Made by a program: the position numbers and the translations under genes. The notes under the pieces were generated by a model, which was not told where the DNA came from, ran no database searches, and saw only the letters and a list, made by a program, of their open reading frames with translations. Below, in pieces: positions 5,165 to 58,389 of a DNA stretch of 64,000 nt. The stretch is from an uncultured Bacteroidales bacterium. GTDB taxonomy: Bacteria; Bacteroidota; Bacteroidia; Bacteroidales; UBA932. Position 1 is the first letter of the stretch, and every line of letters starts with the position of its first letter. The DNA lies in contig CAMVMG010000003.1 of the NCBI GenBank assembly GCA_947168525.1, positions 93,823 through 157,822 on the forward strand, written 5' to 3'.

Positions 5165-5466
5165 AAGTTTTCAGTGAACTTCCCTTTCGGGATTGCAAAG
5201 GTAATACCTTTTTTTGAATCTGCAATAGCTTTTTTCAAAAAATTAAGGCTCACCTGCAAATTTCCGGGGAGGAAAGTGAAATCGCGCTTGACCAGGCTGG
5301 AGCGATATCGTTGTGCCGGTTGTGCCATAGGGCGTAACAGAAGCAGCGGTTTTGTTAAATAGTATAAGAATCACTAAATTTGTGAGTTATCATCGAAACA
5401 TGAGCCATGTCCAAGTTTTCTACATAAAAACAGGGAATGACAACAAACAATAATAAAAGCTCTGCC

Positions 5467-7764
5467 ATGAAAAAGAAATCCTTCCACATCGGGCTGGTCA
5501 AGGCCGCCGTCGCAATCATTGGATTTTCGGGTTTTTTCTCCTGTATCGATCCGTTAAATACGCCGACCGGGTATCTCGCTGAGGTAACATTTCCTGCGGA
5601 GGCTCACGACGGCATCCTGAAACTCAAGGCCCAGAGCACGGAATTCACCCTTGGCATCAAGACCGAAGGCTCCTGGTACATAGAGAGTGACAGACGTTTC
5701 CTTCGGGCTAACCCTGCTGAAGGTACGGGCGAAGCACAAGTGACCATTGCCGTGCAAGCCAATCAGAGTGAAGATGACAAAGTGGGAAAGCTCACGGTCA
5801 TATTTCCCGGGCATGAGGAAAAAAACAGAACGCTCTCCGTTCAGCAGGCATGTGCGAGTCCTGAACTTGAAGTTGAAGGACTTAATACTTCAACCAGGGG
5901 TTATGCCGTAGGGTACAGTTACGATACCGTGGGAGAGTATGCCAACCCGAACTCCGTGAGGATGGAGGTCTTCGACACAAAGGCGCTCATCGAAGACGAG
6001 GTCCTGGCCGTCAATACCAGTCAGGTATCCCTGACCGACTACACCATCACGGGCAGCAGCATCTCGGAGATGACCAACCAACTGGCCGTGCAGGCCAACG
6101 TGAATGGCGGCTATGGGAAGTTCAAGGCCGAAGCCAGTGCGTCGTTCAACATGGACCATGCCGAGAGCAATGAATACGAGTATGCGACCACCTACTTCGA
6201 TCTCACGGTAAGGAAGGCCTCGCTGAGCAAGGACCTGGAGAAACTGAAGGATGATTACATGACCGATGATGCCTACGTTGCCATCAACGGCATTGAGACG
6301 ACGAATGCCCGCGGCGTACCCAAAACTGCCTACCCGTCAAACAATGAGGGCTTCAAGAGACTCATCGAAAACTACGGCACGCACGTCATCGTAGATGCTG
6401 GACTCGGCGGACGCATTCGTTACTCCATGGAGATTGACATCAGTAAGATAGAATCCTCCTACGATGCCAAAGCTTTCATCAAGGCCAGCTACAGCAATGC
6501 CTTTGCCAGTGCCAGCGGCAGTGTAGACGAGCAGTTCAAACAGTCCTTCGAGGAGAACAAAGAGAGCGTGACCATCCGTCTGAACGTGCTGGGGGGTGAT
6601 GAGTCCGCCTCCAAGAAGCTGGGCCTGGAAGGTGGATTCAGCAAGGAGAACCTGGCAGACTGGGTGCAGTCGGTGACGGCCGACAACTTAGCGCTCGTCA
6701 GCTTCAGCCGCACCTCGCTTGTGCCGCTCTACGAGCTGGTAGAACGTAATGCCACCGCTGACCACGGCGGCTTTGACGGCGAGGCCCGTTATCAGGCGTT
6801 GAAGACCTATATGGAGGGACAGATGGTGAACGACTTTGCTCCCAGCAAATGCGGCACGGTGACCGAATTCGAGATTCCAGACTTCAAGAAGAGTTACCGG
6901 TCATCCAACAATTACTTCAGTCTGCCGTTCAATATAAACACACTCATCCAGGATATCATGCTTGGGGGACAGTGGGTGGGGCAAATCTGCGAAGAGTTCA
7001 TTCCGGAAATCAACCGGAACGAGCGCGTCGTCGTTGTCTATCCCGTAATTAGCAATACGCCGCGCTATAACATGGGCGTCTTCCTGGGCGATAACACCCA
7101 TAAACCCGCCCGGGTAGCATGGAACGGCACTACGGTAGCCATACAGGAGTACGCCGACCTGGAATTCGGCCAGGCCACAAAACTCTATCTGCGCGGTGCC
7201 ACCGTCACGCCCGCTCCGGCCGAGGCTACCGAGGTACTGAAGGGCACACTAGACACGGAATGGCTTACTGGACGCTACTTCGACTTTCATAATAATATCG
7301 TGTGTAACTATCCGCTGGTGAAGATTTTCGACCACGTTTGGACCAGATTCAGCTATCATGGCCGGGTGAGCGGTAACAAGGATCGGCCAGTCAGAGACCA
7401 AAAGCTCGGAACCTGGAACATGGAGTACTACTCGTTCGACAATGCCGGCAAATCGGCCAACTTCCCCAGCGGATGGGGCGTACCTAAGCGGGAGGTCTAT
7501 CAGCAGATGAAGGACAAACTGGCCGCCAGTGGATATCCTTCGGCCGGCCTGGCACTACTTGAAGGCGGAGTGACGGGATTCGATGTCGTCTTCCTCGGAT
7601 GGCATAACACGTGGGAAGACCTCGGATGGCGCGGCGACGATAAGAAGGAGATGGATTTTCTTGCCAGGGACGGATATGTGGAAATCCTGAAAAACGGCAG
7701 CTTCAACGTCAAGAAGAGCGACTCCGGAGACCTCTTCATGTGTGTCCGGCTGGTCAAAGAATAG
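5467..7764 (+). CDS. MACPF-domain lipoprotein with N-terminal BACON and C-terminal Fib_succ_major-like domain
   Basis: SPII-type signal (…GFSGFFSC); BACON-like WYIESDRRFLRANPAEGTGEAQVTIAVQAN; MACPF signature YGTHVIVDAGLGG; C-terminal YPLVKIFDHVW…FPSGWGVP…TGFDVVFLG. Likely start MKKKSF at 5467. Confidence 0.85.
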   Translation: MKKKSFHIGLVKAAVAIIGFSGFFSCIDPLNTPTGYLAEVTFPAEAHDGILKLKAQSTEFTLGIKTEGSWYIESDRRFLRANPAEGTGEAQVTIAVQANQSEDDKVGKLTVIFPGHEEKNRTLSVQQACASPELEVEGLNTSTRGYAVGYSYDTVGEYANPNSVRMEVFDTKALIEDEVLAVNTSQVSLTDYTITGSSISEMTNQLAVQANVNGGYGKFKAEASASFNMDHAESNEYEYATTYFDLTVRKASLSKDLEKLKDDYMTDDAYVAINGIETTNARGVPKTAYPSNNEGFKRLIENYGTHVIVDAGLGGRIRYSMEIDISKIESSYDAKAFIKASYSNAFASASGSVDEQFKQSFEENKESVTIRLNVLGGDESASKKLGLEGGFSKENLADWVQSVTADNLALVSFSRTSLVPLYELVERNATADHGGFDGEARYQALKTYMEGQMVNDFAPSKCGTVTEFEIPDFKKSYRSSNNYFSLPFNINTLIQDIMLGGQWVGQICEEFIPEINRNERVVVVYPVISNTPRYNMGVFLGDNTHKPARVAWNGTTVAIQEYADLEFGQATKLYLRGATVTPAPAEATEVLKGTLDTEWLTGRYFDFHNNIVCNYPLVKIFDHVWTRFSYHGRVSGNKDRPVRDQKLGTWNMEYYSFDNAGKSANFPSGWGVPKREVYQQMKDKLAASGYPSAGLALLEGGVTGFDVVFLGWHNTWEDLGWRGDDKKEMDFLARDGYVEILKNGSFNVKKSDSGDLFMCVRLVKE

Positions 7765-9515: not shown

Positions 9516-10010
9516 ATGACAGACTTTGCAGCAATAGACTTTGAGACGGCCAATGAGTGCCGCTCCAGCGTGTGCAGCGTGGGCGTGGTGATTGTCCGCG
9601 GAGGGCAAATCGTTGACTCCTTCTACTCGCTCATCCACCCGGAGCCGGAGTACTACCAGTGGTTTTGTAAACGTGTTCACGGGCTGTCGGAAGAGGACAC
9701 CGAAGATGCCCCGGTGTTCCCGGAGGTCTGGGAAAAGATTGCCCCGATGGTGGAAGGCCTCCCGCTGGTGGCACACAACGCCCCTTTCGACGAAGGCTGC
9801 CTGAAGGAAGTGTTCAAGATGTATCGGATGGACTATCCGGATTATGAGTTCCACGACACCCTGGCGGCATCCCGCCGGATCTACGGGCACAGCCTCCCCA
9901 ATCACCAGCTCCAGACCGTGGCCGCCGCCTGCGGATACGACCTCTCGCGGCATCATCACGCCCTGGCCGACGCAGAGGCGTGTGCCGCCATCGCAGTAAG
10001 AATCCTGTAA
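9516..10010 (+). CDS. DEDDh 3'-5' exonuclease (DNA polymerase III epsilon-like)
   Basis: AIDFETAN, VAHNAPFD and HHALADAEAC motifs; start MTDF at 9516 after GGAGG. Confidence 0.93.
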   Translation: MTDFAAIDFETANECRSSVCSVGVVIVRGGQIVDSFYSLIHPEPEYYQWFCKRVHGLSEEDTEDAPVFPEVWEKIAPMVEGLPLVAHNAPFDEGCLKEVFKMYRMDYPDYEFHDTLAASRRIYGHSLPNHQLQTVAAACGYDLSRHHHALADAEACAAIAVRIL

Positions 10011-10032
10011 GTTAGCAATTAAAAACAAAACC

Positions 10033-10764
10033 ATGAAAAAAAGCATTCTATACCTCGCGAGCCTCCTTCTGGCAGCCCTTTCCTGCACCGGTCCCCGGGA
10101 AAATCCGGCCGACGAACCCTTTACGGACGCCGTCAGCACCGCCCTCGCCAACGGCGGACGCATCGATCCCGCCCTGTTCCAGTGGACACGGGAGCCGCAA
10201 TCCTGCAGCATTTCTCAGGACACCATCCGCATCACCACGGCGCCTCAGACCGACCTCTGGCAGCGGACCTACTACCATTTCCGGAACGACAACGCCCCGG
10301 TCTTCCAGGTCCGGACCCGGGAACGGTATTTCAGCTTTGTGGTAAAAACGGATTTCACCCAGAGCCACCAGCGCTTCGACCAATGCGGCATCGTCATGTA
10401 CCTGGACAGCGAAAACTGGCTGAAAGGCTCCGTGGAGTTCGAGAACGCAGCTTTCCAGCATTTGGGCAGTGTAGCCACCAACCACGGCTACTCGGACTGG
10501 GCAACCACTGCCATCAGCGCCGACGTCAAGACCATGTGGTACCGCTTCTCCCGCCGCGCAGACGACTACTGCATCGAGTGTTCGTCCAACGGCATCGATT
10601 TCTCCCAGATGCGCATCTGCCATATGTACGAGGGAGCCGACACCATCTCCTTCGGCATCTACGCCTGCTCTCCGGAGGCATCGTCCTTCACGGCCGTATT
10701 CACGGACATGCGCATCACCGAGTGCATGTGGAAGGCCCATGACGGGCAGCAGCCGGACGAGTAG
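10033..10764 (+). CDS. DUF1349-family lipoprotein (concanavalin-like fold)
   Basis: Lipobox ALSC; TDLWQRTYYHFRNDNAP, FDQCGIV, WLKGSVE and GIYACSPE motifs. Confidence 0.85.
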   Translation: MKKSILYLASLLLAALSCTGPRENPADEPFTDAVSTALANGGRIDPALFQWTREPQSCSISQDTIRITTAPQTDLWQRTYYHFRNDNAPVFQVRTRERYFSFVVKTDFTQSHQRFDQCGIVMYLDSENWLKGSVEFENAAFQHLGSVATNHGYSDWATTAISADVKTMWYRFSRRADDYCIECSSNGIDFSQMRICHMYEGADTISFGIYACSPEASSFTAVFTDMRITECMWKAHDGQQPDE

Positions 10765-29917: not shown

Positions 29918-31327
29918 CTAAATTACACCCAATGCCTCCGCATGGGAAAGCATTTCCTGCGTAGAAACGACATCTAGCTTGGAGAAAATATTCTGCTTGT
30001 GGTTTTTCACCGTACTCAAGCTGATATGCAGCCGCTCGGCGATCTGTGCATTGGACAACCCTTCCCGACAGCTGCGGATAATTTCAATTTCACGGACTGT
30101 AAGGCCGATATTTTTAGCGGCCGATTTCCGCTGGGTACTCAGTTTGATCAGGTAATCCGAAACCTCCTGCTGCAACTCGCCAGGGGCATCATTAAGCAGG
30201 GCCATGCAGTGCTTTCTGGCTTCAGTATCGTCCATCTGCGTAATCTCTTCCATGGTTTTCCTTGCCCGGACGCCAAAATCCGGACTGGTAAGGCTCGTGG
30301 AAACCAGGCGAAGCAGCCCTTCTTTCCCGCGGTTGGCCGCATCCAACGCGTCCCTTTGCCGATGGAGGCGTCTTGTCATCCATATCGACAGACATAGTAA
30401 AGCGGCCAGCAGCAGGGCAATCAAAGACAGAGACCAGATTTCCCAGCGCATCTGTCGAATCTTCTGTTCTTTCTTCTGCGCCTCGTACCGTGTCTCCATC
30501 TCCTGAAGGAGGAAATCCGACTTTTGCCGCATGTAAAGCTGCGTCGTGTTGGCATACAGCTGGTGCGCCTGGGCCGATTCTTCCAGCTGACCAGTAAGGG
30601 CGTACAGCACAGTAAGATGGTTGTAAATTTGTGACCGCTGCAGATAATCGGTTTCATCGGCCTTGGAAAGCGCTTCCTGACAACAGGCGACGGCTTCTTC
30701 CAGACGGCCACCCTGCCGGTAATAACGGATTCTGTACGGAAGGGCTTTCTCCAGAAGGTCCGGCCGATTGTTTTTCCGTGATAGTGTTTCTCCTTTTTCA
30801 AGGGCATCTCCCGCCTCCCTGTATACACTGCGGTCTATCGGATCGTTAAAACGGTTCACATTCACCAACGCCTGAGACATGTTATATAGGATTTCTATCT
30901 GACGGGATATGCTACCCGCCTTCTCCGAAAGAGCCAGCGCTTCGCGAAAAAAGCCCATCGCTTCTTCTTCCCGGGGCGTCGAACCGTCCACATTCGCATA
31001 GACGCAGACGCGACCTTTCTGAAGGAGGGCGTCGGCCAGTAAAGTATCGTTCTGAAGTACACGGGACACTCGTTCAGCTTCCAGGGCGTGCTCCCATGCC
31101 TGGGCGTCCCGCCAGGTGAGAATGTCCAGCGAGGCCATTTGGCAGAGTATCTCTGCACAGGCCACCTTGTCTCTGGCTTTCTCGGCCTCTTGCAACGCCT
31201 CCACGACATATTCGGTCGCCCTGCCGTATTCCGACTCACGGGCCCACTTACGGGACTCTTCCAGCAGAGAGGCAATAGTACCATTCCCTACAAGAAAATA
31301 CAAACTCAATATGATTACAACAGTCAT
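29918..31327 (-). CDS. Membrane-spanning TPR-sensor / LuxR-HTH transcriptional regulator
   Basis: Hydrophobic N-terminus, helical TPR-like region, TM (WSLSLIALLLAALLCLSIWM), and C-terminal LTVREIEII…GLSNAQIAERLHISLSTVKNHKQNIFSKL. Confidence 0.9.
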   Translation of the reverse strand: MTVVIILSLYFLVGNGTIASLLEESRKWARESEYGRATEYVVEALQEAEKARDKVACAEILCQMASLDILTWRDAQAWEHALEAERVSRVLQNDTLLADALLQKGRVCVYANVDGSTPREEEAMGFFREALALSEKAGSISRQIEILYNMSQALVNVNRFNDPIDRSVYREAGDALEKGETLSRKNNRPDLLEKALPYRIRYYRQGGRLEEAVACCQEALSKADETDYLQRSQIYNHLTVLYALTGQLEESAQAHQLYANTTQLYMRQKSDFLLQEMETRYEAQKKEQKIRQMRWEIWSLSLIALLLAALLCLSIWMTRRLHRQRDALDAANRGKEGLLRLVSTSLTSPDFGVRARKTMEEITQMDDTEARKHCMALLNDAPGELQQEVSDYLIKLSTQRKSAAKNIGLTVREIEIIRSCREGLSNAQIAERLHISLSTVKNHKQNIFSKLDVVSTQEMLSHAEALGVI

Positions 31328-31490: not shown

Positions 31491-31628
31491 ATGGACCTTA
31501 TCGAAAAAAAAGAGGAATTATACCTCGCACCGGAAGTCTCCGTCTTGGAGATTGCCACTGAAACATTCATTTGTCAAAGTAACCCAGGAGAGATTCCCGG
31601 CAATCTGGGTGGTGGCGGCTGGATTTAG
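31491..31628 (+). CDS. 45-aa YxAP micropeptide (not in ORF track)
   Basis: MDLIEKKEELYLAPEVSVLEIATETFICQSNPGEIPGNLGGGGWI*; shares a motif with the 52336-52461 peptide. Confidence 0.75.
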   Translation: MDLIEKKEELYLAPEVSVLEIATETFICQSNPGEIPGNLGGGGWI

Positions 31629-31656: not shown

Positions 31657-32679
31657 ATGAAAAAGATTATCTTAGCCCTGGCTACTCTGGCAATTGCCTT
31701 TACAGCCTGCAACAAGGCGGAGGACACGAATACAACTTCCCCCTATTCCAACGTTAAGGTTCACCTCACCGTAACCGCCCCTGAGGCCAATCTCACCAAA
31801 GCAAATTTTGCATGGACAGATCCCAGTAATCCTATCGGCGGCTTAAATGTCACCTGGAAGGAAGGAGACTATTTTGAACTGATTATTTTCCAAGGTAACA
31901 ACGCCGACTGGAAAACTAACTACATCCATAAGACATTTAGTTTACCTGCAGGAGCTGAGGGTCAAACATCCTATGACCTTTCCTCTCTTGTAGGATCAGT
32001 TGATCTCTCCAGCTTCGACGACACTAAGAACCTGAAATATGTCGTTGTATATGAAGGGTTTAATCACTTTAACGAGTATTGGCATGAGTTGAATATCTGG
32101 AACGGTGTTCCTAATTATAGTTATACCCTTTCTCCCAGCGAGCAGATTAATCGGACTATGTTTGCAGAAACAAACGTTCAGGAAATCGCATTCCCCTCCG
32201 GAGACCTTACCCTTAGCGGAAAACTATACTGGATGACTTCTGTCCTGGCTGTTCAGTTTGATATAGACCCGGCTGCCGACATCAGCTACCCTTCTGATTC
32301 GTACTTTATCTGCGATCTCACTCATCCAAGTATAGATCAAGTTGACTGCTATTTTCCCATCACCAGAAAATCTGATGCTTCTACTAAAATCATTTCCCTT
32401 CCTATTGTATTTAATGGTGGTGCCGCTTTAAGTGATGCACTTGACGGCAACAAATGCAGGTATTTTGCCATTCCTTCAGACAGTATTCTCGACGCTGCCG
32501 GAAATACCCGCAAATTAGGAGGAGCCAATGTAAGTTTCCGCCTTTCTAGTCCGAATATAACTTATACTTCTTCCGGTTCCCTTTCCGATGTTGCCATTGA
32601 ACCTGGAATGGTTTACGGTATTAAAGTAAAAGTCACTGACTCTGACAGTAACGGCGAGCCTGAATTTACAAAGCTGTAA
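31657..32679 (+). CDS. Fimbrillin/type V pilin-like surface lipoprotein
   Basis: SPII signal MKKIILALATLAIAFTAC; TKA…VTWKEGD motif; C-terminal strand IEPGMVYGIKVKV; AT-rich. Confidence 0.7.
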   Translation: MKKIILALATLAIAFTACNKAEDTNTTSPYSNVKVHLTVTAPEANLTKANFAWTDPSNPIGGLNVTWKEGDYFELIIFQGNNADWKTNYIHKTFSLPAGAEGQTSYDLSSLVGSVDLSSFDDTKNLKYVVVYEGFNHFNEYWHELNIWNGVPNYSYTLSPSEQINRTMFAETNVQEIAFPSGDLTLSGKLYWMTSVLAVQFDIDPAADISYPSDSYFICDLTHPSIDQVDCYFPITRKSDASTKIISLPIVFNGGAALSDALDGNKCRYFAIPSDSILDAAGNTRKLGGANVSFRLSSPNITYTSSGSLSDVAIEPGMVYGIKVKVTDSDSNGEPEFTKL

Positions 32680-49864: not shown

Positions 49865-52324
49865 TTAATTCGCCGATAGGGTCACATCAGCGGCCGGCAT
49901 GGTAAGGGTATAGGAACCGTTTCCGTTGTTTGTCAAGGTAACGGGGTTACTCGCACCATCGACGGCGCTGTAGGAAGAGCCGCCGGACAGGGTCAGGGTG
50001 ACAGCCTTGCCGGAGACAAAGTACTTGACACCACCGTGCTCCAGATCTTCTGCCGTGGAAGGCGTTACGGTTACGCCACCGGCGCCGACAATCTTGTAAG
50101 CACCCTTAGCGCCCTCCTGGTCAACGCCGTTCACGCCGCCTGAGATCGAAGCGGATGTCGTATAGTAATTGGAGACATAATTGAACTGACCATACGTGTC
50201 GTTGTGCAGGCCGCCTGCTATTCCTCCCTTATAAGAGGTTGCGGAAACCGCTCCCAGATTGAGGTTGTTTTCAAGATTGTTCTTGGACGGTCCTGCACCG
50301 CTGATTTCCGCATAGTCATACGTGGTTCCATTCAATTGTCCGGCGATGCCGCCCACATAGTTGACCCCGGTAACAGAACTCTCATTTACGCAAGAGAGGA
50401 TCCGGATAATGGCATTCTTATGCCCCACGGAAGTTGCTCCGATGATACCGCCGACACAATTCTTTGCCGATTGCACCGTGCCGTGATTCTCACATACGGT
50501 AATTGTTATGTAAGTATCATGATTGTCCGTAGAGTTATTAGTTAAGGAGGCCCAGCCTATGATGCCACCGACATAATTGTCAACGGCCTCTACGGCTCCA
50601 TTATTAATGCAGCCGGATATGATCGTCTCGCTTCCTTGATGATCGTTCCATCCGACTATACCACCCGTAAAACTGCCATATAAGTCCTCGTACTTTGAAG
50701 AGTTGTGGTTAAACCATCCTTTACCATTACTCTTTACCTTCCCGTGATTGGTGCAATTGATAATCCCCATTGCTCCGGTGGCTTGGCCGACAATACCGCC
50801 TACGCGCGTTCTTCCTGTCACATCACCATAGTTTATGCAGGAGGTGATTGCATCCATGGCGGAGTTCTGGGTTTGCGATGTGATACCTCCGGCTCTTTCC
50901 GTTCCAGTAACCGTTCCGTAATTGGTGCAATTCACTAGTTTAGGACCACAAAGACTGACGATTCCGCCGGCATTGCCTCCATTGGCTTTCTCAGCAGTTA
51001 CAGTGCCGTGAAAAGTACATCCACTTATTGAAACATTATTATTTGATGCATTGCCGATGATGCCGCCAACACTTGTTTGCCCAGTGACGCTCCCGGTCAC
51101 GTGACAATTAGTAAACGCACCTTCAGCGTAACCGGCTATCCCACCTGTTTTATTATTATTGTTTGATGAGATGGTACAATCGGCTAGCGTGAGGTCATAG
51201 ACAGAAGTTGCAGTTCCGGATATATAGCCAAACAGGCCTGTGTAATTTGCAGAACTGCTTTCCGTAGTAATCTTCAGGTTGGAGATGGTCTTGTGATTAC
51301 CGTTGAAACTCCCTTTGAAAGGAAGCGTAGCACTTAGGCCAATGGGCTGGAAATTATCTATTTCAGAAAGGTCTAGATTACTGTTCAATGTTACAGTCTG
51401 ACCCTCATAAGTCTTGCCGATACTCACTTCATTGGACAACTGTACCAAATCAGATACAGTGTTGATTTCTGTGATGAAGTTTGCATCCAACGGCGTCATC
51501 GTCAAGGTCGAAGTATAATACTTCCCAGCCTGAAGATTTCCTTTCTTTACGCAACTCAGTTTTCTTGAATTGTCAGTGACACATTTGATTACATAGTTAT
51601 TATCACGATTCATAGAACTGACGGCCACCCATATTTCATTAGTAGCTGTTGCAGGAGTAATGGTTATCTGCCCTACAAAAGCCAGGCTACCGCTTGTATA
51701 GTTCTTAATGTAGTCTGCGGCAATCGTGACACTTGTCACGTTGATGTCGCCATTCGCATCCTTGAACTTCATTTTCCAGATGGCCTGGCAGTTATTGAAG
51801 GCAGCATTGGTAGTAGTGATCACTTTCGTATCCGTGTTCAACTCCGTAATCTCCACCTCGGCAAAGGAGAAATTGCAATGATCGGAGATATACTGCAGCG
51901 TTCCGTCCTGACCCCGATAATCAGTATTGTAATCCGGATAGGATAGACGCAACTTCGAACCTACGGAGAGACCTTCGACGGAAGTTAAAGAGCCGGAGAA
52001 AGTAGTATGCTCACCGCCCGTCTCAGCTGAGAGCGTCCCAATGTTGGCAACAAGCGAGAGTTGCCCGTTATCCAGATACTTATGGACAACGACCTCATCG
52101 TTTTGCGTCCATTCCGACTTAATTGTGCCGTTCGGGTTCATCGACAAAGCTTTGGTAACGGCGTCATTCTTTTCACCGGCCTCTACCTTCAGCGTCCAGA
52201 CTTCTTCCTCTTCTTTTGTTTCCCGCGTTTCTTCCTTACTATCCAGTTCCATTTGAGAGCAAGAAAGCAGTCCCAGGCTCAGACCCAATATAATGGGCAA
52301 TAAGTGCTTAACATTCTTTCTCAT
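49865..52324 (-). CDS. Surface lipoprotein/adhesin: fimbrillin-like N-terminus, GLUG-type beta-helix repeats, C-terminal B-repeat-like domain
   Basis: Lipobox GLLSC; TKA…SEWTQND; LQAGKYYTSTLTM; many GGI(V/I/A)G repeats; AGGAGG ribosome-binding site. Confidence 0.82.
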   Translation of the reverse strand: MRKNVKHLLPIILGLSLGLLSCSQMELDSKEETRETKEEEEVWTLKVEAGEKNDAVTKALSMNPNGTIKSEWTQNDEVVVHKYLDNGQLSLVANIGTLSAETGGEHTTFSGSLTSVEGLSVGSKLRLSYPDYNTDYRGQDGTLQYISDHCNFSFAEVEITELNTDTKVITTTNAAFNNCQAIWKMKFKDANGDINVTSVTIAADYIKNYTSGSLAFVGQITITPATATNEIWVAVSSMNRDNNYVIKCVTDNSRKLSCVKKGNLQAGKYYTSTLTMTPLDANFITEINTVSDLVQLSNEVSIGKTYEGQTVTLNSNLDLSEIDNFQPIGLSATLPFKGSFNGNHKTISNLKITTESSSANYTGLFGYISGTATSVYDLTLADCTISSNNNNKTGGIAGYAEGAFTNCHVTGSVTGQTSVGGIIGNASNNNVSISGCTFHGTVTAEKANGGNAGGIVSLCGPKLVNCTNYGTVTGTERAGGITSQTQNSAMDAITSCINYGDVTGRTRVGGIVGQATGAMGIINCTNHGKVKSNGKGWFNHNSSKYEDLYGSFTGGIVGWNDHQGSETIISGCINNGAVEAVDNYVGGIIGWASLTNNSTDNHDTYITITVCENHGTVQSAKNCVGGIIGATSVGHKNAIIRILSCVNESSVTGVNYVGGIAGQLNGTTYDYAEISGAGPSKNNLENNLNLGAVSATSYKGGIAGGLHNDTYGQFNYVSNYYTTSASISGGVNGVDQEGAKGAYKIVGAGGVTVTPSTAEDLEHGGVKYFVSGKAVTLTLSGGSSYSAVDGASNPVTLTNNGNGSYTLTMPAADVTLSAN

Positions 52325-52335
52325 AAGGCATCCTC

Positions 52336-52461
52336 CTAAAACTCTTCAGGTCCATCATACTGTGGTGCATCACCAGAGACAACGAGGATGGCTCCCTCGG
52401 CCTTTACCTCTACAACCGTCGTTGCAGGGGCTTCATACAAATCGTGCTTAATTGTTTCCAT
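52336..52461 (-). CDS. 41-aa YxAP micropeptide (not in ORF track)
   Basis: METIKHDLYEAPATTVVEVKAEGAILVVSGDAPQYDGPEEF*; its stop codon abuts the AGGAGG of the adhesin gene; TATCTTTG promoter upstream. Confidence 0.78.
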   Translation of the reverse strand: METIKHDLYEAPATTVVEVKAEGAILVVSGDAPQYDGPEEF

Positions 52462-52505
52462 TTTGCTTCATGGTTCTACGAACAGAAGCACAAAGATACT
52501 AAAAA

Positions 52506-52522
52506 GTATGTTATTAACATAC
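52506..52522. promoter_or_regulatory. Perfect palindrome GTATGTTA-T-TAACATAC, candidate operator
   Basis: Lies just upstream of the TATCTTTG box that drives the peptide-adhesin unit. Confidence 0.5.
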
Positions 52523-52581: not shown

Positions 52582-55473
52582 TCAAAACAGCATATTCCAC
52601 GCCGCCTGCTGCGCCCTTGCACTGTGGGCTGCATTCATCTTACCGAAGTTCCACTTCACCCCGAAGAGAATGTATCGGCCCATACACAGGCGATAGCTGT
52701 CCTCCTCATAGTTGGCAGTGACCGTGTGCGTCAGTCTCCGCGTCTGGTTCAAGATGTCGTAAACCTTGACACTTAGGTTGAATGCGCCGATATTCTTTGA
52801 AACCGCAGCATACCACCGCCATTCCGGTTTCCCATATCCTGCTGCATACCCCTTGTAAAAGACATAGCTGATGTCGGAATTAAACTCAAACTCATGCTTG
52901 GTGGTATATGAGCCACGGGCCGTAATCTTTGTGTCCAGGGTATTCATATTGATGCTGGGGTCAAGCGAGTACCGGGCGATGCGTCCCTGCGTGTTGGCCT
53001 CCAGGCTGATGAAATAATGATCCTGATTGTACTTCACGGTGAATCCTGCGTAGGGATTGAAGGAACGAGTCCTGCTCTCCCCGAATCCGCTGAGCCCGCC
53101 ATAGAAGCGGTCTCCGTCCGCATTCCCCCAGAAATCGTCCATAAAGGCTGAATAATCGAAGCTGTTTTTGTCCAAACCGGGCAGCGTCGTTTTAGCCTGG
53201 TAGCTGACGGAAGAAGTATACGCCAGAACACCATTCAAAGTGAGGGTCCAGTTTTTCTTTGCGTCCAGCGGCGTGGTATAATTCGCCGTCAGGCTGGCCG
53301 ACACACTCGGCTTCCGTGAATTGACCGGGATAGAATAAAGGATGCCATCCGTATCGTACCAGCGGGCAAAACTAATGGGCGATGTATTCAGCCGGCCGTC
53401 CACATAGACCATCAGCGTGGAAAAACGCTCCTTATTGTCCCTTTTCCAGTTGCCGCCGAAATTCGTCGTCGTATATGGCTTCAGGAACACGTTGCCTAGA
53501 CTCAATCGGGAAGGATCACTGATGTTCAGCACGGGCAGCATCCGGGATGAATTGGGGCGCTGTCCATATCCGGAGGCATAGAGCGAAAAACGGTCGTTGC
53601 CATTGCTGTACTGGAAACGCATGTTCGGTGTGACAAACCAATTCCATTCACCCTTTCCGCTATAGTCTTCTATGCCGAAACTCTTGGAGTACGTCTCGTT
53701 CACGATACCCGAGACCCGCCCGCCGAACGTAAACCAACTGTCCTCCCCAAACTTGTATTGGGCTGTCACGTCATATAGTTGAATCAGATAATGGTTGTTG
53801 CTCACGGAACTGTAGTAATCGTTCCTGCCGTTTGCGTCAAACGCATCGCGGTTGTTATTATACTTGGCCCAGTTCAGTTCGGCCTTAGCAGAAAGTGTCC
53901 ATTTCTCGCCGATGGGTTCCGTATATTGAGCAGATCCGCCAAAACCATACGACTTGCTGTCCAACAGATAACGCATAGCATGTGATGTCATTCCTCCTGC
54001 TGTTTTCAGGATGGACGATTCTTCGCTCTCCTCATCTGTGCCACCATAATTGCCATTGAAATCAAAGCGCAGGTTCCTGTTCTTCTTTCCACCCAACTCC
54101 CGGAAAGTAACATCGGCTCTAAGCCCGGTATTATTGCTCGAGGAAAATCTGTGGGAAGTATTATCCGAACTGTTCACGAATGTTCCAGTCCGGTAGGTCT
54201 CCGAGGCCCCAGTTCCCGTCTCATCAATCTTGTTAAAGCGGAAGGAGGGGGTGAAATGGAACCACACCTTTCCTTTCTCCTTCTTGAATTCTACGTTGGT
54301 ATTGAGGGCATTGGCAAACTGCTTGCCGCTGTTTGCCGTTGATGAGTTCAGGTTGCCGTCATCCTGGAAGGTTGTCCTTTCCGTCTGGGAACCGGAATCT
54401 GTGTCCGTGTATTTGTAATTCGCACTGACCGTGGTCTCCACATCCTTGATCCGGGACGTGTTGTAATTCACGCCCGCCTGGGCTGCCGTCGAGAGTCCCT
54501 GGTCCAAGGATGAACGTTCTCCCTCGTCGTCAACGATAATCATCACGACATTCGAATCATCGACATTCTGCCCGTTGGCAATCACCGTCAACTGATCCTT
54601 CTCCGTATAAGCCGACACAAGCGCATTTCCGCCCCAGAGCAATCCCCGGTTATCCTGGAGCGGATTGTCACCATCCTGCCCGCCGATCGTGGTGCCACCC
54701 TTGACGCCGATGTTGCCGAACCAGCCTTTCTCATACTCTTTCTTCAGCGCCACATCCAGCACCTTCTCCCTGCTGCCGTCCTGGATGCCGGAGGCCCGGG
54801 TGGCTTCCGACTCACGGTCGATGACGCGAATCTTGTCCACCACGGCTGCCGGCAGGTTGTTCAAGGCCGTGCTCTGGTCACCGAAGAAGAAGGTGCGTCC
54901 GCCCACGGTGAGTTTGTCGATTTCTTCACCATTGAACTTCACCGTTCCATCATCGGTGATTTCCATACCCGGCATTCGCTGGAGCAAATCCTTCAGCATC
55001 GCATTGGCCCCGACCCGGAAGGAAGAAGCATTGAACTCGACCGTGTCTTTCTTGATGACGATTGGATTACCCACATCAGTGACCACTGCAGCCTGCAGGA
55101 ACTGCTCGTCCACCTGTAGCCGGATGGTGCCCAGGTCCACCTTTTCCTCACGGAAGAAGCGCTCCAGCACAACCGGCTTGTATCCCATCATCTCCACGTG
55201 AAAAGCATAACTGCCGAAGGGTACTTCGTCCAGCTTGGCTTCACCATTGGCGTCCGTCAGGGTAAAATTGGTAATCGTGGTGTCCTTGGCCGGAATGACA
55301 TAGACCGATGCATACGAGATCGGCTCATTGGTCAGAGAATCCAGAACCGTGGTTTTGATCTCGCTCATCCGCTCCTTGAACATGTTTTCGTTGACAATGT
55401 AAACCTGCGCATTAGCTACAAATCCGACACACAAGGACATAGTGAGGGCTGACAAGAATCTTCTCATCATCAT
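52582..55473 (-). CDS. Outer-membrane beta-barrel protein with carboxypeptidase-regulatory-like and plug domains
   Basis: Signal peptide; VLDSLTNEPISYASV; DTVEFNASSF…DLLQRMPGM plug; beta-strands; C-terminal YILFGVKWNF. Confidence 0.88.
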   Translation of the reverse strand: MMMRRFLSALTMSLCVGFVANAQVYIVNENMFKERMSEIKTTVLDSLTNEPISYASVYVIPAKDTTITNFTLTDANGEAKLDEVPFGSYAFHVEMMGYKPVVLERFFREEKVDLGTIRLQVDEQFLQAAVVTDVGNPIVIKKDTVEFNASSFRVGANAMLKDLLQRMPGMEITDDGTVKFNGEEIDKLTVGGRTFFFGDQSTALNNLPAAVVDKIRVIDRESEATRASGIQDGSREKVLDVALKKEYEKGWFGNIGVKGGTTIGGQDGDNPLQDNRGLLWGGNALVSAYTEKDQLTVIANGQNVDDSNVVMIIVDDEGERSSLDQGLSTAAQAGVNYNTSRIKDVETTVSANYKYTDTDSGSQTERTTFQDDGNLNSSTANSGKQFANALNTNVEFKKEKGKVWFHFTPSFRFNKIDETGTGASETYRTGTFVNSSDNTSHRFSSSNNTGLRADVTFRELGGKKNRNLRFDFNGNYGGTDEESEESSILKTAGGMTSHAMRYLLDSKSYGFGGSAQYTEPIGEKWTLSAKAELNWAKYNNNRDAFDANGRNDYYSSVSNNHYLIQLYDVTAQYKFGEDSWFTFGGRVSGIVNETYSKSFGIEDYSGKGEWNWFVTPNMRFQYSNGNDRFSLYASGYGQRPNSSRMLPVLNISDPSRLSLGNVFLKPYTTTNFGGNWKRDNKERFSTLMVYVDGRLNTSPISFARWYDTDGILYSIPVNSRKPSVSASLTANYTTPLDAKKNWTLTLNGVLAYTSSVSYQAKTTLPGLDKNSFDYSAFMDDFWGNADGDRFYGGLSGFGESRTRSFNPYAGFTVKYNQDHYFISLEANTQGRIARYSLDPSINMNTLDTKITARGSYTTKHEFEFNSDISYVFYKGYAAGYGKPEWRWYAAVSKNIGAFNLSVKVYDILNQTRRLTHTVTANYEEDSYRLCMGRYILFGVKWNFGKMNAAHSARAQQAAWNMLF

Positions 55474-55499
55474 AACAGTCTTATTTTAAGGAAATTACT

Positions 55500-56093
55500 T
55501 TATTTTGTATCTATCGAATACGCTCGTCCGTTAATCGTGATTGTCGTGACCGCACGGCCATTGATGGTGATTTTCCCGTCATCATCGACCGTCACCCCGG
55601 GAAGATTCTTCAGGACCTCCGCCCAGTTTGTTTTATCCTTTTTCGTGGTAATGTTCATGACAACTACGTTCTCGCCATATTTCTTCTGCTCCGGTGAGCC
55701 ATCCTTGACCACGGTAATGTTTTCAATATCGAAAGGAGAAATGGAGTTGAAGGCCGAAGCATCTTCGTACGGCACACCATCGATGATATAGATAATCTTC
55801 CGGTGTGTGGACTTGATGACAATCGACGAATCAATGGGAGTCAAAGGCTTCAAGGGAGTGAATGACCCCGTGACAGAAAACACCGAGGGCGATGTGGTAA
55901 TGGCGTGGACCGTAATGGCATTGCGCCCAGAACCTTTCGTTGTGATTTTGTAGTCCCTGACGGTTCTGTCCTTGAGCTGGGAGCCGTCAAAATTCTCCAC
56001 GGTTTCATTGTCGATAATATAAATGGTCTGCTGGGCAGACAGCGTCCATGCGCCGACAAACAGGCAGATGGAAAGAAGGATTATCTTTTTCAT
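55500..56093 (-). CDS. Small secreted protein made of TonB-receptor plug-like segments
   Basis: Signal peptide; IIYIIDGVP…ISPFDIENITVVKD; LKNLPGVTVDDDGKITING. Confidence 0.7.
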   Translation of the reverse strand: MKKIILLSICLFVGAWTLSAQQTIYIIDNETVENFDGSQLKDRTVRDYKITTKGSGRNAITVHAITTSPSVFSVTGSFTPLKPLTPIDSSIVIKSTHRKIIYIIDGVPYEDASAFNSISPFDIENITVVKDGSPEQKKYGENVVVMNITTKKDKTNWAEVLKNLPGVTVDDDGKITINGRAVTTITINGRAYSIDTK

Positions 56094-56104
56094 GGGTGAT
56101 CTTC

Positions 56105-56626
56105 TTACTTGTTCAATGCAACGAGATTAAAGGATTTGCCCCCATCCAGCGGTGTGAGGATGTATGAGGCAGTCTGCCCATCGGGGAAATGGGCGGTCAT
56201 CACAAACCCGTCCCCAACAGGTTTGAATTCCAGGTTCTCGGCTTCCGCCGGATTGAAGTTGGATAAAAAAGCTATCTGCTGAATCAATTTAGTATAGTCA
56301 TTCTGCGGCGTAGCCGGGATGCCGGGACGGTCAGGCTGGCCCGTAAACAATACTACAGCGGTAATGGCTGCGGCCACACCGGCCAGCGAAAGGCCCCAAG
56401 TGAAGAAAGGCCGCACCTTTGCAGGTTTCACCATCCGGTCATACTCAGCGCCGGCTTCCGGCAGTTCAGAGAGTTCGATGGGCCTGACAGAGAGCATCAT
56501 CTTATATACCGCCATCTCTTCCTCATCGGCAGGAGGCGTAGTGGCAAAGGAGGCGGCAAGCTCCTGTTCCTGTTCGCAGGTCGTTTCTGCGTCCAGATAC
56601 AATCTTATCAAGTCTTTCCGGTCCAT
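56105..56626 (-). CDS. Probable anti-sigma factor (single TM)
   Basis: LIRLYLDAETTCEQEQEL N-terminus and a central TM; directly downstream of the ECF sigma gene. Confidence 0.7.
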   Translation of the reverse strand: MDRKDLIRLYLDAETTCEQEQELAASFATTPPADEEEMAVYKMMLSVRPIELSELPEAGAEYDRMVKPAKVRPFFTWGLSLAGVAAAITAVVLFTGQPDRPGIPATPQNDYTKLIQQIAFLSNFNPAEAENLEFKPVGDGFVMTAHFPDGQTASYILTPLDGGKSFNLVALNK

Positions 56627-56630
56627 TGTA

Positions 56631-57122
56631 TTACTTCGTGTTAAAGGTTTTCATCAATTCTTGTCGCGCGGCTGAAATGGAACTTTTCACCCCGCCTTTC
56701 GTCCTTCCGGTTATGGCGGCAATCTCATCCAGGGAAAGCCCGGTGGCGCGCAATTGCAGCAATCGCCTTGTCCCGGCAGGAAGTCGTTCCAGCGCCTTGT
56801 CGGCCATCCTTTCGGCCTCCGACTGTTCAATCAGCGTGGAAGCATCCTTGCCATCCGACAACCATTCCGGATACACTCCACTTCTCACGGGACCCTTCTT
56901 GCGCCATAGCGAAATGCAACTATTCTTAGTAGTAGATACAGCCCAGGCCTCTGCACTGCGAATCTGTACACCGTCACGTCTTGCCACCCAAAGCCGCAGC
57001 AGCACGTCCTGCACTACATCCTCCGGATCACCGTCCAGCCGGGATGCACGGAAAAACTTCAGTGCCGTCGCCAGAACTTTGGGCCTTATCTCTGTGAGTT
57101 CTATTTCAAGCGTTTTATCCAT
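56631..57122 (-). CDS. ECF RNA polymerase sigma factor
   Basis: EDVVQDVLLRLW (region 2); GLSLDEIAAITGRTKGGVKS (region 4). Confidence 0.92.
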   Translation of the reverse strand: MDKTLEIELTEIRPKVLATALKFFRASRLDGDPEDVVQDVLLRLWVARRDGVQIRSAEAWAVSTTKNSCISLWRKKGPVRSGVYPEWLSDGKDASTLIEQSEAERMADKALERLPAGTRRLLQLRATGLSLDEIAAITGRTKGGVKSSISAARQELMKTFNTK

Positions 57123-57978: not shown

Positions 57979-58389
57979 TTACTTCCTTCTCACAAAGTGC
58001 CGATAATCAGAGCCCCAGGTTCCCGCAGAATAGGTTGTGCCCTCCTTCTGCCATTCCATCTCTTTGGATGTCAGCTTCACCACCTTATAGGTTACATTGC
58101 TGAAGTCCGACATCGCCGGATTGATGGTAATGGTTCCTTTGTTAATCAGGTCGATGGCATACGTGCCGCTATAGTCGTGTGATTCACCGCTAAGGGCATC
58201 ATCCACGTGTAGCTGGTAATGGCCATTCCCATCAAATGTGTACGTCACAGAACCATCCATTGCAAACACCTCCGGATCGTACTGCTCACTCCAGGTTCCT
58301 TCCAACTTGTTCACATCGATCTTCTCACAACCGCTCAGCCCTGTCACCAGCAGCGCTACGCAAAGAACATTTCTCAATATCTTCATCAT
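57979..58389 (-). CDS. Small lipoprotein (lipocalin-like)
   Basis: Lipobox GLSGC; LEGTWSE; YKVVKLTSKEMEW. Confidence 0.7.
   Translation of the reverse strand: MMKILRNVLCVALLVTGLSGCEKIDVNKLEGTWSEQYDPEVFAMDGSVTYTFDGNGHYQLHVDDALSGESHDYSGTYAIDLINKGTITINPAMSDFSNVTYKVVKLTSKEMEWQKEGTTYSAGTWGSDYRHFVRRK

Follow-up and report, generated by a model that had tools for sequence, protein, structure and literature searches.

A micropeptide family with a conserved head and a hypervariable tail encoded directly ahead of type V pilin-like lipoprotein genes in Bacteroidales

The DNA analyzed here is a stretch of 64,000 nucleotides from an uncultured Bacteroidales bacterium (contig CAMVMG010000003.1 of GenBank assembly GCA_947168525.1, positions 93,823 to 157,822), in the following called the window. 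At positions 52336 to 52461 of its minus strand lies an open reading frame (ORF) of 41 codons, whose product is here named micropeptide A and which directly precedes the gene of a signal peptidase II (SPII) type lipoprotein (lipoprotein A). A second pair, consisting of micropeptide B and lipoprotein B, is located on the plus strand of the same window. Comparative sequence analysis indicates that the two micropeptides belong to an uncurated family which forms an undescribed component of the known type V pilin-like lipoprotein operons. With high confidence, the ORF specifies a real micropeptide that is functionally tied to its pilin-fold lipoprotein; a role of the peptide as physical partner, and not as signal or regulator, is proposed more tentatively.

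The micropeptide genes and their family

The peptide genes of the window and the parts of micropeptide A are given below.

52336 to 52461, minus strand: micropeptide A gene, with ATG, 41 codons and TAG; product METIKHDLYEAPATTVVEVKAEGAILVVSGDAPQYDGPEEF
52375 to 52461, minus strand: conserved head of micropeptide A, codons 1-29, with invariant Tyr9 and Pro12 followed by an alternating V-E-V-K-x-E-G-x-I-L strand or hairpin segment
52339 to 52374, minus strand: subfamily-specific tail of micropeptide A, codons 30-41 (GDAPQYDGPEEF), acidic, Tyr-containing, Phe-terminated and invariant within the A subfamily
31491 to 31628, plus strand: micropeptide B gene, 28 nt ahead of the lipoprotein B gene; product MDLIEKKEELYLAPEVSVLEIATETFICQSNPGEIPGNLGGGGWI

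The micropeptide A ORF is not extendable in the 5′ direction, as a stop codon is located two codons before the ATG. A word-indexed search yielded 33 clusters at 71-100% identity to peptide A, nearly all of which have 41 residues and four of which have different called starts; Y9, P12, V16 and the block SG-APQY-GP--F are invariant across these relatives. For the analysis of selection 18 distinct DNA versions of the A subfamily were used. The numbers of variable sites at codon positions 1, 2 and 3 were 12, 11 and 30, respectively, the third position thus varying about three times as often as the first or the second. The preliminary description of this DNA had named a lack of dN/dS constraint as an argument against its proposal of a recurring peptide and pilin module; the calculation according to Nei and Gojobori revealed purifying selection on the peptide A ORF, with a dN/dS of 0.29 overall, 0.32 in the head and 0.22 in the tail. 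On its pattern of substitutions, the 41-codon ORF is a genuine, selected protein-coding gene.

A profile of the A relatives was searched against 1.84e9 representative proteins and gave 46 matches at E<=1e-3, nearly all with a length of 35-56 residues; a small number of calls were longer, having extended starts, and a repeat protein of 333 aa was set aside. The matches have the N-terminal ~30 residues in common and are completely different in the remainder. Together with 78 fetched loci, the searches led to a family of 93 distinct members of 35-56 aa. The pattern used for finding loci ([EDV]LYE[AT]P..., derived from a 12-member subset) favours heads of the ELYEAP type, and the taxonomic range observed is consequently a lower bound. 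Reading frame and length are retained among members sharing only ~42% identity.

The relation between the two peptides of the window was analyzed separately. In the preliminary description, a recurring YxAP peptide had been claimed on the basis of an alignment of peptides A and B with 8 of 19 residues identical, a number that was confirmed by hand count. BLASTP of peptide A versus peptide B alone found no alignment. A profile hidden Markov model (HMM) was built from 43 family members with peptide B excluded and run against all 1321 six-frame ORFs of the window, where it detected peptide A with 85 bits and peptide B with 27.7 bits (E=1.2e-7), the next ORF after peptide B having E=3.1. The distance between these two E-values argues for homology rather than chance similarity, so that peptides A and B are, in terms of sequence, members of one family and the recurrence of the peptide is upheld.

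The family consists of a common head with the consensus MEtKxKELYEAPxTxVVEVKxEGxI[L/C]xxS and of a tail of 8-25 residues. Tyr and Pro of the YxxP motif are invariant in all 93 members. When the members are aligned on this Tyr, the columns with an entropy below 1.2 bits are Y, P, L at -1, E at +1, V at +7, E at +9, E at +13, I at +16 and L/C at +17, and K at +11 has an entropy of 1.39 bits. Most columns up to +17 stay below 2 bits, five variable ones reaching 2.3 bits or more, and every column after +21 is above 3 bits. The tails are hypervariable, rich in G, D, E, P, Y and N, and carry a mean net charge of -5.3; 77 of 93 contain Tyr, and 46 of 93 end with F or W. Within a subfamily the tail is conserved, namely as GDAPQYxGPxxF in the A subfamily and as [ND]PG[ED]xP[GE][ND]LG[GS]G[GE]WI in the B type, where it is retained across lipoprotein B homologues at 42-54% identity. 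Several paralogues with different tails and a common head occur on one contig in the window and in loci L009, L014, L033, L045 and L051. None of the 93 members has a signal peptide or a hydrophobic segment.

Peptides A and B match no family of Pfam or NCBIfam. Scanning 43 members singly against the curated Pfam-A and NCBIfam models gave only scattered single matches at E>=0.009, and the family profile had no match at E<=10 among the PDB sequences; these scans of Pfam, NCBIfam and PDB sequences also revealed no DNA-binding or other known motif in the peptide. No match to the consensus peptide was found by tblastn in the plasmids of PLSDB. A literature search for the motif strings, for small ORFs associated with type V pili and for Bacteroidota peptides that are made by ribosomes and modified post-translationally (RiPPs) returned nothing on the family.

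Operon organization and the downstream pilin-fold lipoproteins

The elements flanking micropeptide A, the two lipoprotein genes and the regulator gene next to micropeptide B are the following.

52506 to 52522, no strand: perfect 8+8 palindrome GTATGTTA-T-TAACATAC, directly 5′ of the -7 box and conserved in A-subfamily relatives
52491 to 52498, minus strand: Bacteroidetes-type -7 promoter box TATCTTTG (TAnnTTTG), 37 nt 5′ of the peptide A ATG
52325 to 52337, minus strand: junction of peptide A and lipoprotein A, reading TAGGAGGATGCCTTATG, with a Shine-Dalgarno (SD) like AGGAGGA overlapping the TAG and 11 nt to the lipoprotein ATG
49865 to 52324, minus strand: lipoprotein A, 819-aa SPII lipoprotein with lipobox LLSC (Cys22), acidic linker, strand VWTLKVEAGE and TKA at 56-58
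31657 to 32679, plus strand: lipoprotein B, 340-aa SPII lipoprotein, a complete type V pilin-like protein with Cys18, acidic linker and TKA at 47-49
29918 to 31327, minus strand: regulator with tetratricopeptide repeats (TPR) and a LuxR/GerE domain, divergent from module B (Pfam GerE 9e-16, weak match to a FimS-like NCBIfam model)

The -7 box is kept at a distance of 36-37 nt in 17 upstream regions of the A subfamily; of random windows of 58 nt, 2% contain the motif. The palindrome next to it looks like an operator, and those A-subfamily relatives that possess it have a divergent gene of the TetR family (202-220 aa). At the corresponding position of the window the TetR gene is absent, and the gene of an outer-membrane protein ends at 52582 instead. 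A GGAGG-type element is present at 22 of 40 distinct junctions between peptide and lipoprotein gene (55%) and in 3% of the regions upstream of other ORFs, which corresponds to a 17-fold enrichment; upstream of the peptide genes themselves it was found in 0 of 41 regions. In Bacteroidetes, SD-led initiation is generally not used. The SD-like element together with the short gap, SD use being rare in these bacteria, points to translational coupling of peptide and lipoprotein by termination and reinitiation, and with gaps of -7 to 33 nt across the family the downstream start is near enough for such coupling. From these elements, the micropeptide A gene and the lipoprotein gene are predicted to form an operon of two cistrons, in which the peptide comes first and is preceded by a Bacteroidetes-type promoter of its own.

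The association was analyzed in loci obtained by a scan of one genome per species (9 loci, from metagenome-assembled genomes of rumen Bacteroidales and from the cultured Seramator thermalis SYSU GA16112, locus L016), from metagenome contigs (50 loci) and by exact look-ups. In total, 56 distinct peptides with flanking sequences were obtained, 53 of which were informative. A lipoprotein gene begins -7 to 33 nt after the peptide stop codon in 45 of the 53 informative distinct loci (42 recognized by a strict regular expression and three with obvious lipoboxes outside this expression). In five further loci a gene for a secreted Calx-beta protein lies directly downstream, and in the remaining three (L049, L062 and the first peptide of the L051 pair) the peptide is an orphan followed by hairpins or by no gene. 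As background served the 203 other ORFs of these loci with a length of 150 aa or more, 30 of which encode lipoproteins. Against it, the Fisher p is 8e-19 with the strict count of 42 and 6e-25 if the lipoprotein must in addition contain a T-[KR]-[AGS] site; the loci counted are not independent of each other phylogenetically, but they include lipoproteins with no more than 19-34% identity. In the reverse direction, homologues of lipoprotein B at 42-54% identity have a family peptide 25 nt upstream. After removal of the signal peptides, 37 of 52 downstream proteins, including lipoprotein A, fell into one phmmer cluster. The preliminary description had considered its module refuted if other genomes showed no association of the peptide with pilin-like genes, and the association was present in these 45 of 53 loci.

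The degree of conservation differs strongly between the parts of the module. Across the family, the heads remain 48-66% identical, whereas identity drops to 19-27% in the lipoprotein domain and the similarity of the upstream DNA is no higher than background. The comparison of locus L046 with the window illustrates this, with a head identity of 83%, a tail identity of 33% and an identity of the lipoprotein N-domain of 34%. The tail follows the type of the lipoprotein rather than the head. Given 48-66% for the head versus 19-27% for the lipoprotein domain, the head is the best-conserved element of the module and is conserved as protein, its flanks being mosaic.

Both lipoproteins of the window were modelled with AlphaFold2. 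For lipoprotein B, an alignment of 26 sequences led to a model with a predicted local distance difference test score (pLDDT) of 85 and a predicted template modelling score (pTM) of 0.82. In a Foldseek search against the PDB it matched BF2867 (4h40, 9e-11), besides Mfa3 (5nf4), Mfa2 (5nfi), Mfa4 (5dhm) and the FimA prepilin (6jzk). Residues 1-290 of lipoprotein A were modelled from 27 sequences with a pLDDT of 75, and the N-domain matched BF2867 (4h40, 3.6e-7) as well as 3ufi, 4k4k, BF1861 (3sy6) and Mfa3 (5nf4). The Foldseek TM-scores for both lipoproteins were 0.4-0.5. Neither of them matches Pfam Mfa_like_1 or FimA at E<=1, and the family-associated lipoprotein encoded at L009:5984-7936 has a Pfam Mfa_like_1 match of 2.4e-35. 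Within the set of 52 sequences, a profile of the A-type N-domain reached this L009 protein at 6.7e-5 and lipoprotein B at 0.008. According to the models, both window lipoproteins have the type V pilin fold of BF2867, Mfa and FimA proteins, in agreement with the earlier assignment as type V pilin-like. In lipoprotein A, this domain comprises approximately residues 42-280 and is followed by ~530 residues of GLUG-like repeats, for which the Pfam Glug match was 0.1 bit below the cut-off; owing to this repeat region, lipoprotein A looks more like an adhesin on a pilin-like stalk.

The position of SPII lipoproteins with a TKA motif directly 3′ of both peptides had been described correctly, the gaps being 11 nt for A and 28 nt for B. 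The G-x-x-Y-x-h-x-h strand described for both was recovered as well, in lipoprotein B as GMVYGIKV near the C-terminus and in lipoprotein A as GKYYTSTL, which ends the N-terminal pilin-like domain and not the protein. Of 42 lipoproteins, 37 have a T-[K/R]-[A/S/G] site that is as far from the Cys as expected. The Lys/Arg-Ala site is located at residues 47-63 of the downstream lipoproteins, near the position of the Arg-gingipain cut in FimA and Mfa1. Arg-gingipain cuts FimA at Arg46 and Mfa1 at Arg49, which releases the pro-strand and opens the groove for strand exchange (PMC8512630).

The type V pilus systems known from Porphyromonas gingivalis (FimA-E and Mfa1-5) and the BF2867-type structures of the Joint Center for Structural Genomics, labelled as putative cell adhesion proteins, likewise consist of SPII lipoprotein precursors with the same fold. 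Unlike in the fim and mfa systems, the pilin-like gene found here is usually solitary instead of being part of a five-gene cluster, and it often continues into a large C-terminal region of the adhesin type (GLUG-like repeats, F5/8 type C, Big_2). To our knowledge, no small cytoplasmic peptide gene has been described in fim or mfa clusters.

Variation among the modules and neighbouring genes

No third gene conserved beside the pair of peptide and lipoprotein was found in the annotated contexts. The neighbours vary and comprise TetR genes (relatives of A), the TPR-LuxR gene (B), AAA ATPases, MraZ, a phosphatase, or nothing recognizable. The divergent TPR-LuxR/GerE arrangement of module B is retained in L007 and L077/L078. 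The neighbours of A-type modules are completely different among the window, L001, L003 and L008. In the metagenome contigs L003-L006, which encode an A-type lipoprotein of 790 aa, the module lies beside a relaxase gene, a MobC/NikA-like gene, an AAA_25 ATPase gene and an ATPase_2 gene, and the A-type module of these contigs may travel on a mobilizable element.

Several loci deviate from the simple pair. In L013, L014, L048, L053 and L054, whose peptides have tails like PYGTQDYNYGSLDEDD, a signal peptidase I (SPI) type secreted Calx-beta protein is encoded 12-13 nt after the peptide; these proteins have ~980 aa, except for a 439-aa version in L048. A gene for a pilin-like lipoprotein of 314 aa follows the Calx-beta gene in L013, the one case checked, indicating that the module can hold an extra gene. 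L051 contains tandem family peptides (503-637, the second ~330 nt downstream) ahead of one lipoprotein gene, the peptides of L049 and L062 are orphans followed by hairpins and no gene, and a weak family-like ORF of 39 aa, which would be a fourth orphan, is present after a lipoprotein gene in L022 (7739-7858).

Directly upstream of module A, the window contains four co-oriented genes on the minus strand (52582-57119):

56631 to 57119, minus strand: extracytoplasmic function (ECF) sigma factor
56105 to 56623, minus strand: 172-aa protein with no Pfam match, possibly an anti-sigma factor
55500 to 56090, minus strand: 196-aa protein with only the Plug domain of TonB receptors
52582 to 55473, minus strand: 963-aa protein with CarboxypepD_reg and an OMP_b-brl_3 barrel

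The plug (55500-56090) and the barrel (52582-55473) appear to be separate genes. Small Lipocalin_4 lipoproteins of ~135-147 aa with near-identical N-termini are encoded near A-type modules, in the window at 57979-58386 (minus strand) and in L008 at 5771-6178 and 9607-10050, and are absent from the modules of other subfamilies. Genes for permeases of ~780 aa with MacB_PCD and FtsX domains are located in the window at 58442-60775 (minus strand) and three in a row in L001 (1-7187); being absent near other modules they were not counted as part of the system, and they are the sole transporter-type neighbours seen. Farther away, the window encodes at 5437-7761 (plus strand) a lipoprotein of 775 aa carrying BACON and MACPF domains, the latter with a Pfam match of 7e-19.

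Possible roles of the micropeptide

As a tentative interpretation, the peptide is regarded as a cognate partner that is made together with its own lipoprotein and acts before or during export of the latter. Peptide and lipoprotein would be synthesized jointly by translational coupling, for which the gap of -7 to 33 nt and the SD-like junction would provide. The function shared by the family would reside in the head, which probably forms a β-strand and would bind to some conserved feature, either of the pilin-like domain or of the machinery handling it, and the tail would confer specificity for the particular lipoprotein. Since the peptide has no export signal, the interaction is assigned to the cytoplasm, at a time when the prelipoprotein has yet to be, or is being, exported by Sec; there the peptide would serve as a small dedicated holding or targeting factor. 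A comparison is offered by donor-strand complementation in chaperone-usher pili, in which the chaperones PapD and FimC provide a β-strand in trans that stabilizes the pilin groove. Those chaperones reside in the periplasm, have a mass of ~25 kDa and carry signal peptides, unlike the family peptides of ~40 residues without export signal, and in type V prepilins the groove is capped by the N-terminal pro-strand of the prepilin itself.

Several points weigh against the proposed partner role. A Sec/SPII lipoprotein folds outside the cytoplasm and the peptide is devoid of a signal peptide, which makes a lasting complex topologically awkward, and we know of no export chaperone of 40 aa for lipoproteins. 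The head (48-66%) is far better conserved than its presumed target, the pilin-like domain (19-27%). The division into head and tail, the multiple paralogues, the tandem of L051 and the orphans fit a leader and core peptide at least as well. Finally, no RNA sequencing run containing the locus was found, those listed being single-cell poly-A libraries linked to it only through a species label, and transcription and translation of micropeptide A are deduced solely from its conservation.

The main alternative, a RiPP-like or exported peptide, appears less likely. Under this alternative the head is the leader for shared machinery encoded elsewhere, such as a protein of the RiPP recognition element (RRE) type, a peptidase or an exporter, and the tail, maybe modified at Tyr, is released. 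The tail would then act outside the cytoplasm on the cognate lipoprotein, as groove cap or donor strand, or on a sensor, for example the periplasmic TPR domain encoded beside module B. A donor-strand cap or chaperone requires export and is for this reason grouped here; it meets a difficulty in the lack of a signal peptide or hydrophobic segment in 93 of 93 members, whose ORFs are not extendable upstream, and would depend on an unlinked exporter. The sharp boundary between low entropy through +17 and more than 3 bits after +21, the small residues (S, G) at this boundary, the same-contig paralogues sharing a head, the existence of orphans and a tandem pair, and the retention of a TPR-LuxR regulator with a FimS-like sensor region beside B-type modules are all in line with a leader and core peptide. 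The same is true of the YxxP motif, which is invariant in 93 of 93 members and followed by a strand, with a conserved N-terminus and a variable C-terminus as in RRE-dependent precursors. The motif [Y/W]xxPx[LVIAFY] is bound by the RRE in the precursors of lasso peptides, pyrroloquinoline quinone (PQQ) and LPP, which have conserved N-termini and variable C-termini; these precursors (lasso, PqqA, LPP) are likewise small, combine YxxP with a strand and occur several times per genome (PMC13381572). In contrast to them, the family has a lipoprotein gene and not an enzyme gene as its conserved neighbour, no maturation gene is linked in the annotated contexts, and the P+2 residue is mostly Thr (54 of 93, 58%), which is outside the RRE consensus, besides Ile (16 of 93) and Val (15 of 93).

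No gene for an RRE, radical SAM protein, YcaO, lasso cyclase, peptidase-containing ATP-binding cassette (ABC) transporter or kinase was found among the ~40 window genes scanned with Pfam or in the Pfam lists of ~12 other contexts, so that the earlier statement that the window holds no RiPP enzymes is borne out for the ~40 genes scanned. When 43 members were compared with the curated RiPP-precursor models, none was matched. A leader and core peptide would also not by itself account for the strict placement before the lipoprotein gene or for the SD-like junction.

A lasso-peptide precursor in particular was rejected on the core rules and on the missing B and C genes. The rules (Thr at -2; G, A, S or C at position 1 with D or E at 7-9) are inconsistently met in the sequences read by eye: in the register given by YxxP, the core of peptide A would begin with Leu and would be without D or E at 7-9, and some subfamilies including B happen to fit. 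Linked genes for the RRE (B1), the leader peptidase (B2) and the macrolactam synthetase (C) were absent from the ~40 window genes and ~12 other contexts. The Bacteroidales RiPP loci described so far pair precursors carrying a GG motif with peptidase-containing ATP-binding transporters (PCAT) (PMC10352776). In the family, a double-glycine leader end is absent as judged by eye, the boundary being S-G or S with the hydrophobic positions out of register, and no C39/ABC gene lies beside any module in the annotated contexts. A bolder form of this alternative, and one that we hold to be unlikely, is a new leader and core class of micropeptides dedicated to type V pilin-like adhesins, in which the head would be recognized by a shared maturation or export system and the tail would dock on its own lipoprotein or sensor at the cell envelope and thereby control capping, cleavage, polymerization or expression. 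If true, a peptide acting in trans would be added to type V pilus biology, which is not known to include such a component.

A mainly regulatory ORF, controlling the expression of the adhesin-like lipoprotein in cis or in trans, is considered slightly less probable still. In the cis version, translation of the ORF would deliver ribosomes to an SD-led start that is poorly used by Bacteroidetes ribosomes. In the trans version, the peptide would exert feedback on the adjacent TetR or TPR-LuxR regulator or mediate cross-talk among paralogous loci, comparable to UpxZ, which mediates such cross-talk among Bacteroides capsule loci. Such a role is consistent with the peptide ORF always being the first cistron behind its own promoter, with the very short gaps and the 17-fold enrichment of SD-like elements at the junction, with the operator-like palindrome and divergent TetR gene of the A subfamily and the TPR-LuxR gene of the B subfamily, and with the many paralogous modules per genome. 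However, a purely cis-acting ORF would not retain its amino acids between subfamilies with unrelated flanking DNA, and the heads have 48-66% amino-acid identity at loci whose upstream DNA does not rise above background similarity. The adjacent regulators vary by subfamily and are absent at many loci, which rules them out as a target shared by all conserved heads. The scans described above detected neither a DNA-binding motif nor any other known one in the peptide.

Short ORFs directly ahead of, and probably coupled to, the gene of an exported protein are also known from SecM-secA, TnaC-tnaA and SpeFL-speF. In SecM, TnaC and SpeFL the functional conserved residues are located near the stop codon or arrest site, that is in the C-terminal, tunnel-proximal part, whereas the family conserves its N-terminal 29 residues and is most variable in the C-terminal part; a conserved C-terminal arrest motif is absent, as the family C-terminus has more than 3 bits per column and is conserved only within subfamilies. 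Module B resembles the RRNPP/Rgg pairs of Firmicutes in having a small peptide gene with a variable C-terminal part beside a regulator containing TPR. It differs from them in that the A subfamily has TetR or no such neighbour, many loci have no regulator, the host is Gram-negative, and no export or processing route for the peptide is known.

A chance ORF or annotation artefact without function, for which the very short length and the failure of BLASTP to align A with B might be cited, can hardly be credited given the HMM result (E=1e-7 versus 3 for the next ORF), the 93 members with conserved frame and length, the dN/dS of 0.29 and a position that is conserved where the lipoproteins are only 19-34% identical. 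Two further ideas were discarded: recoding or read-through that fuses peptide and lipoprotein, as the junction gaps of 2-33 nt are distributed over all three frames and the lipoprotein depends on a signal peptide at its own N-terminus, and an origin of the head as a duplicate of the lipoprotein pro-strand, for which inspection by eye found no consistent similarity across subfamilies.

On the surface of gut and rumen Bacteroidales, few proteins are as abundant and diverse as the lipoproteins with the type V pilin fold. The micropeptide, which heads dozens of such operons and whose tail changes with the lipoprotein, is a candidate for a missing biogenesis or control factor of the solitary, adhesin-fused forms. 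Standard annotation misses the family, as its members have 35-56 aa and match no model, and a family HMM would allow their annotation. The family peptides are found in ruminant-gut Bacteroidales and in one cultured species, Seramator thermalis, which has the module and makes genetic analysis of this component conceivable.

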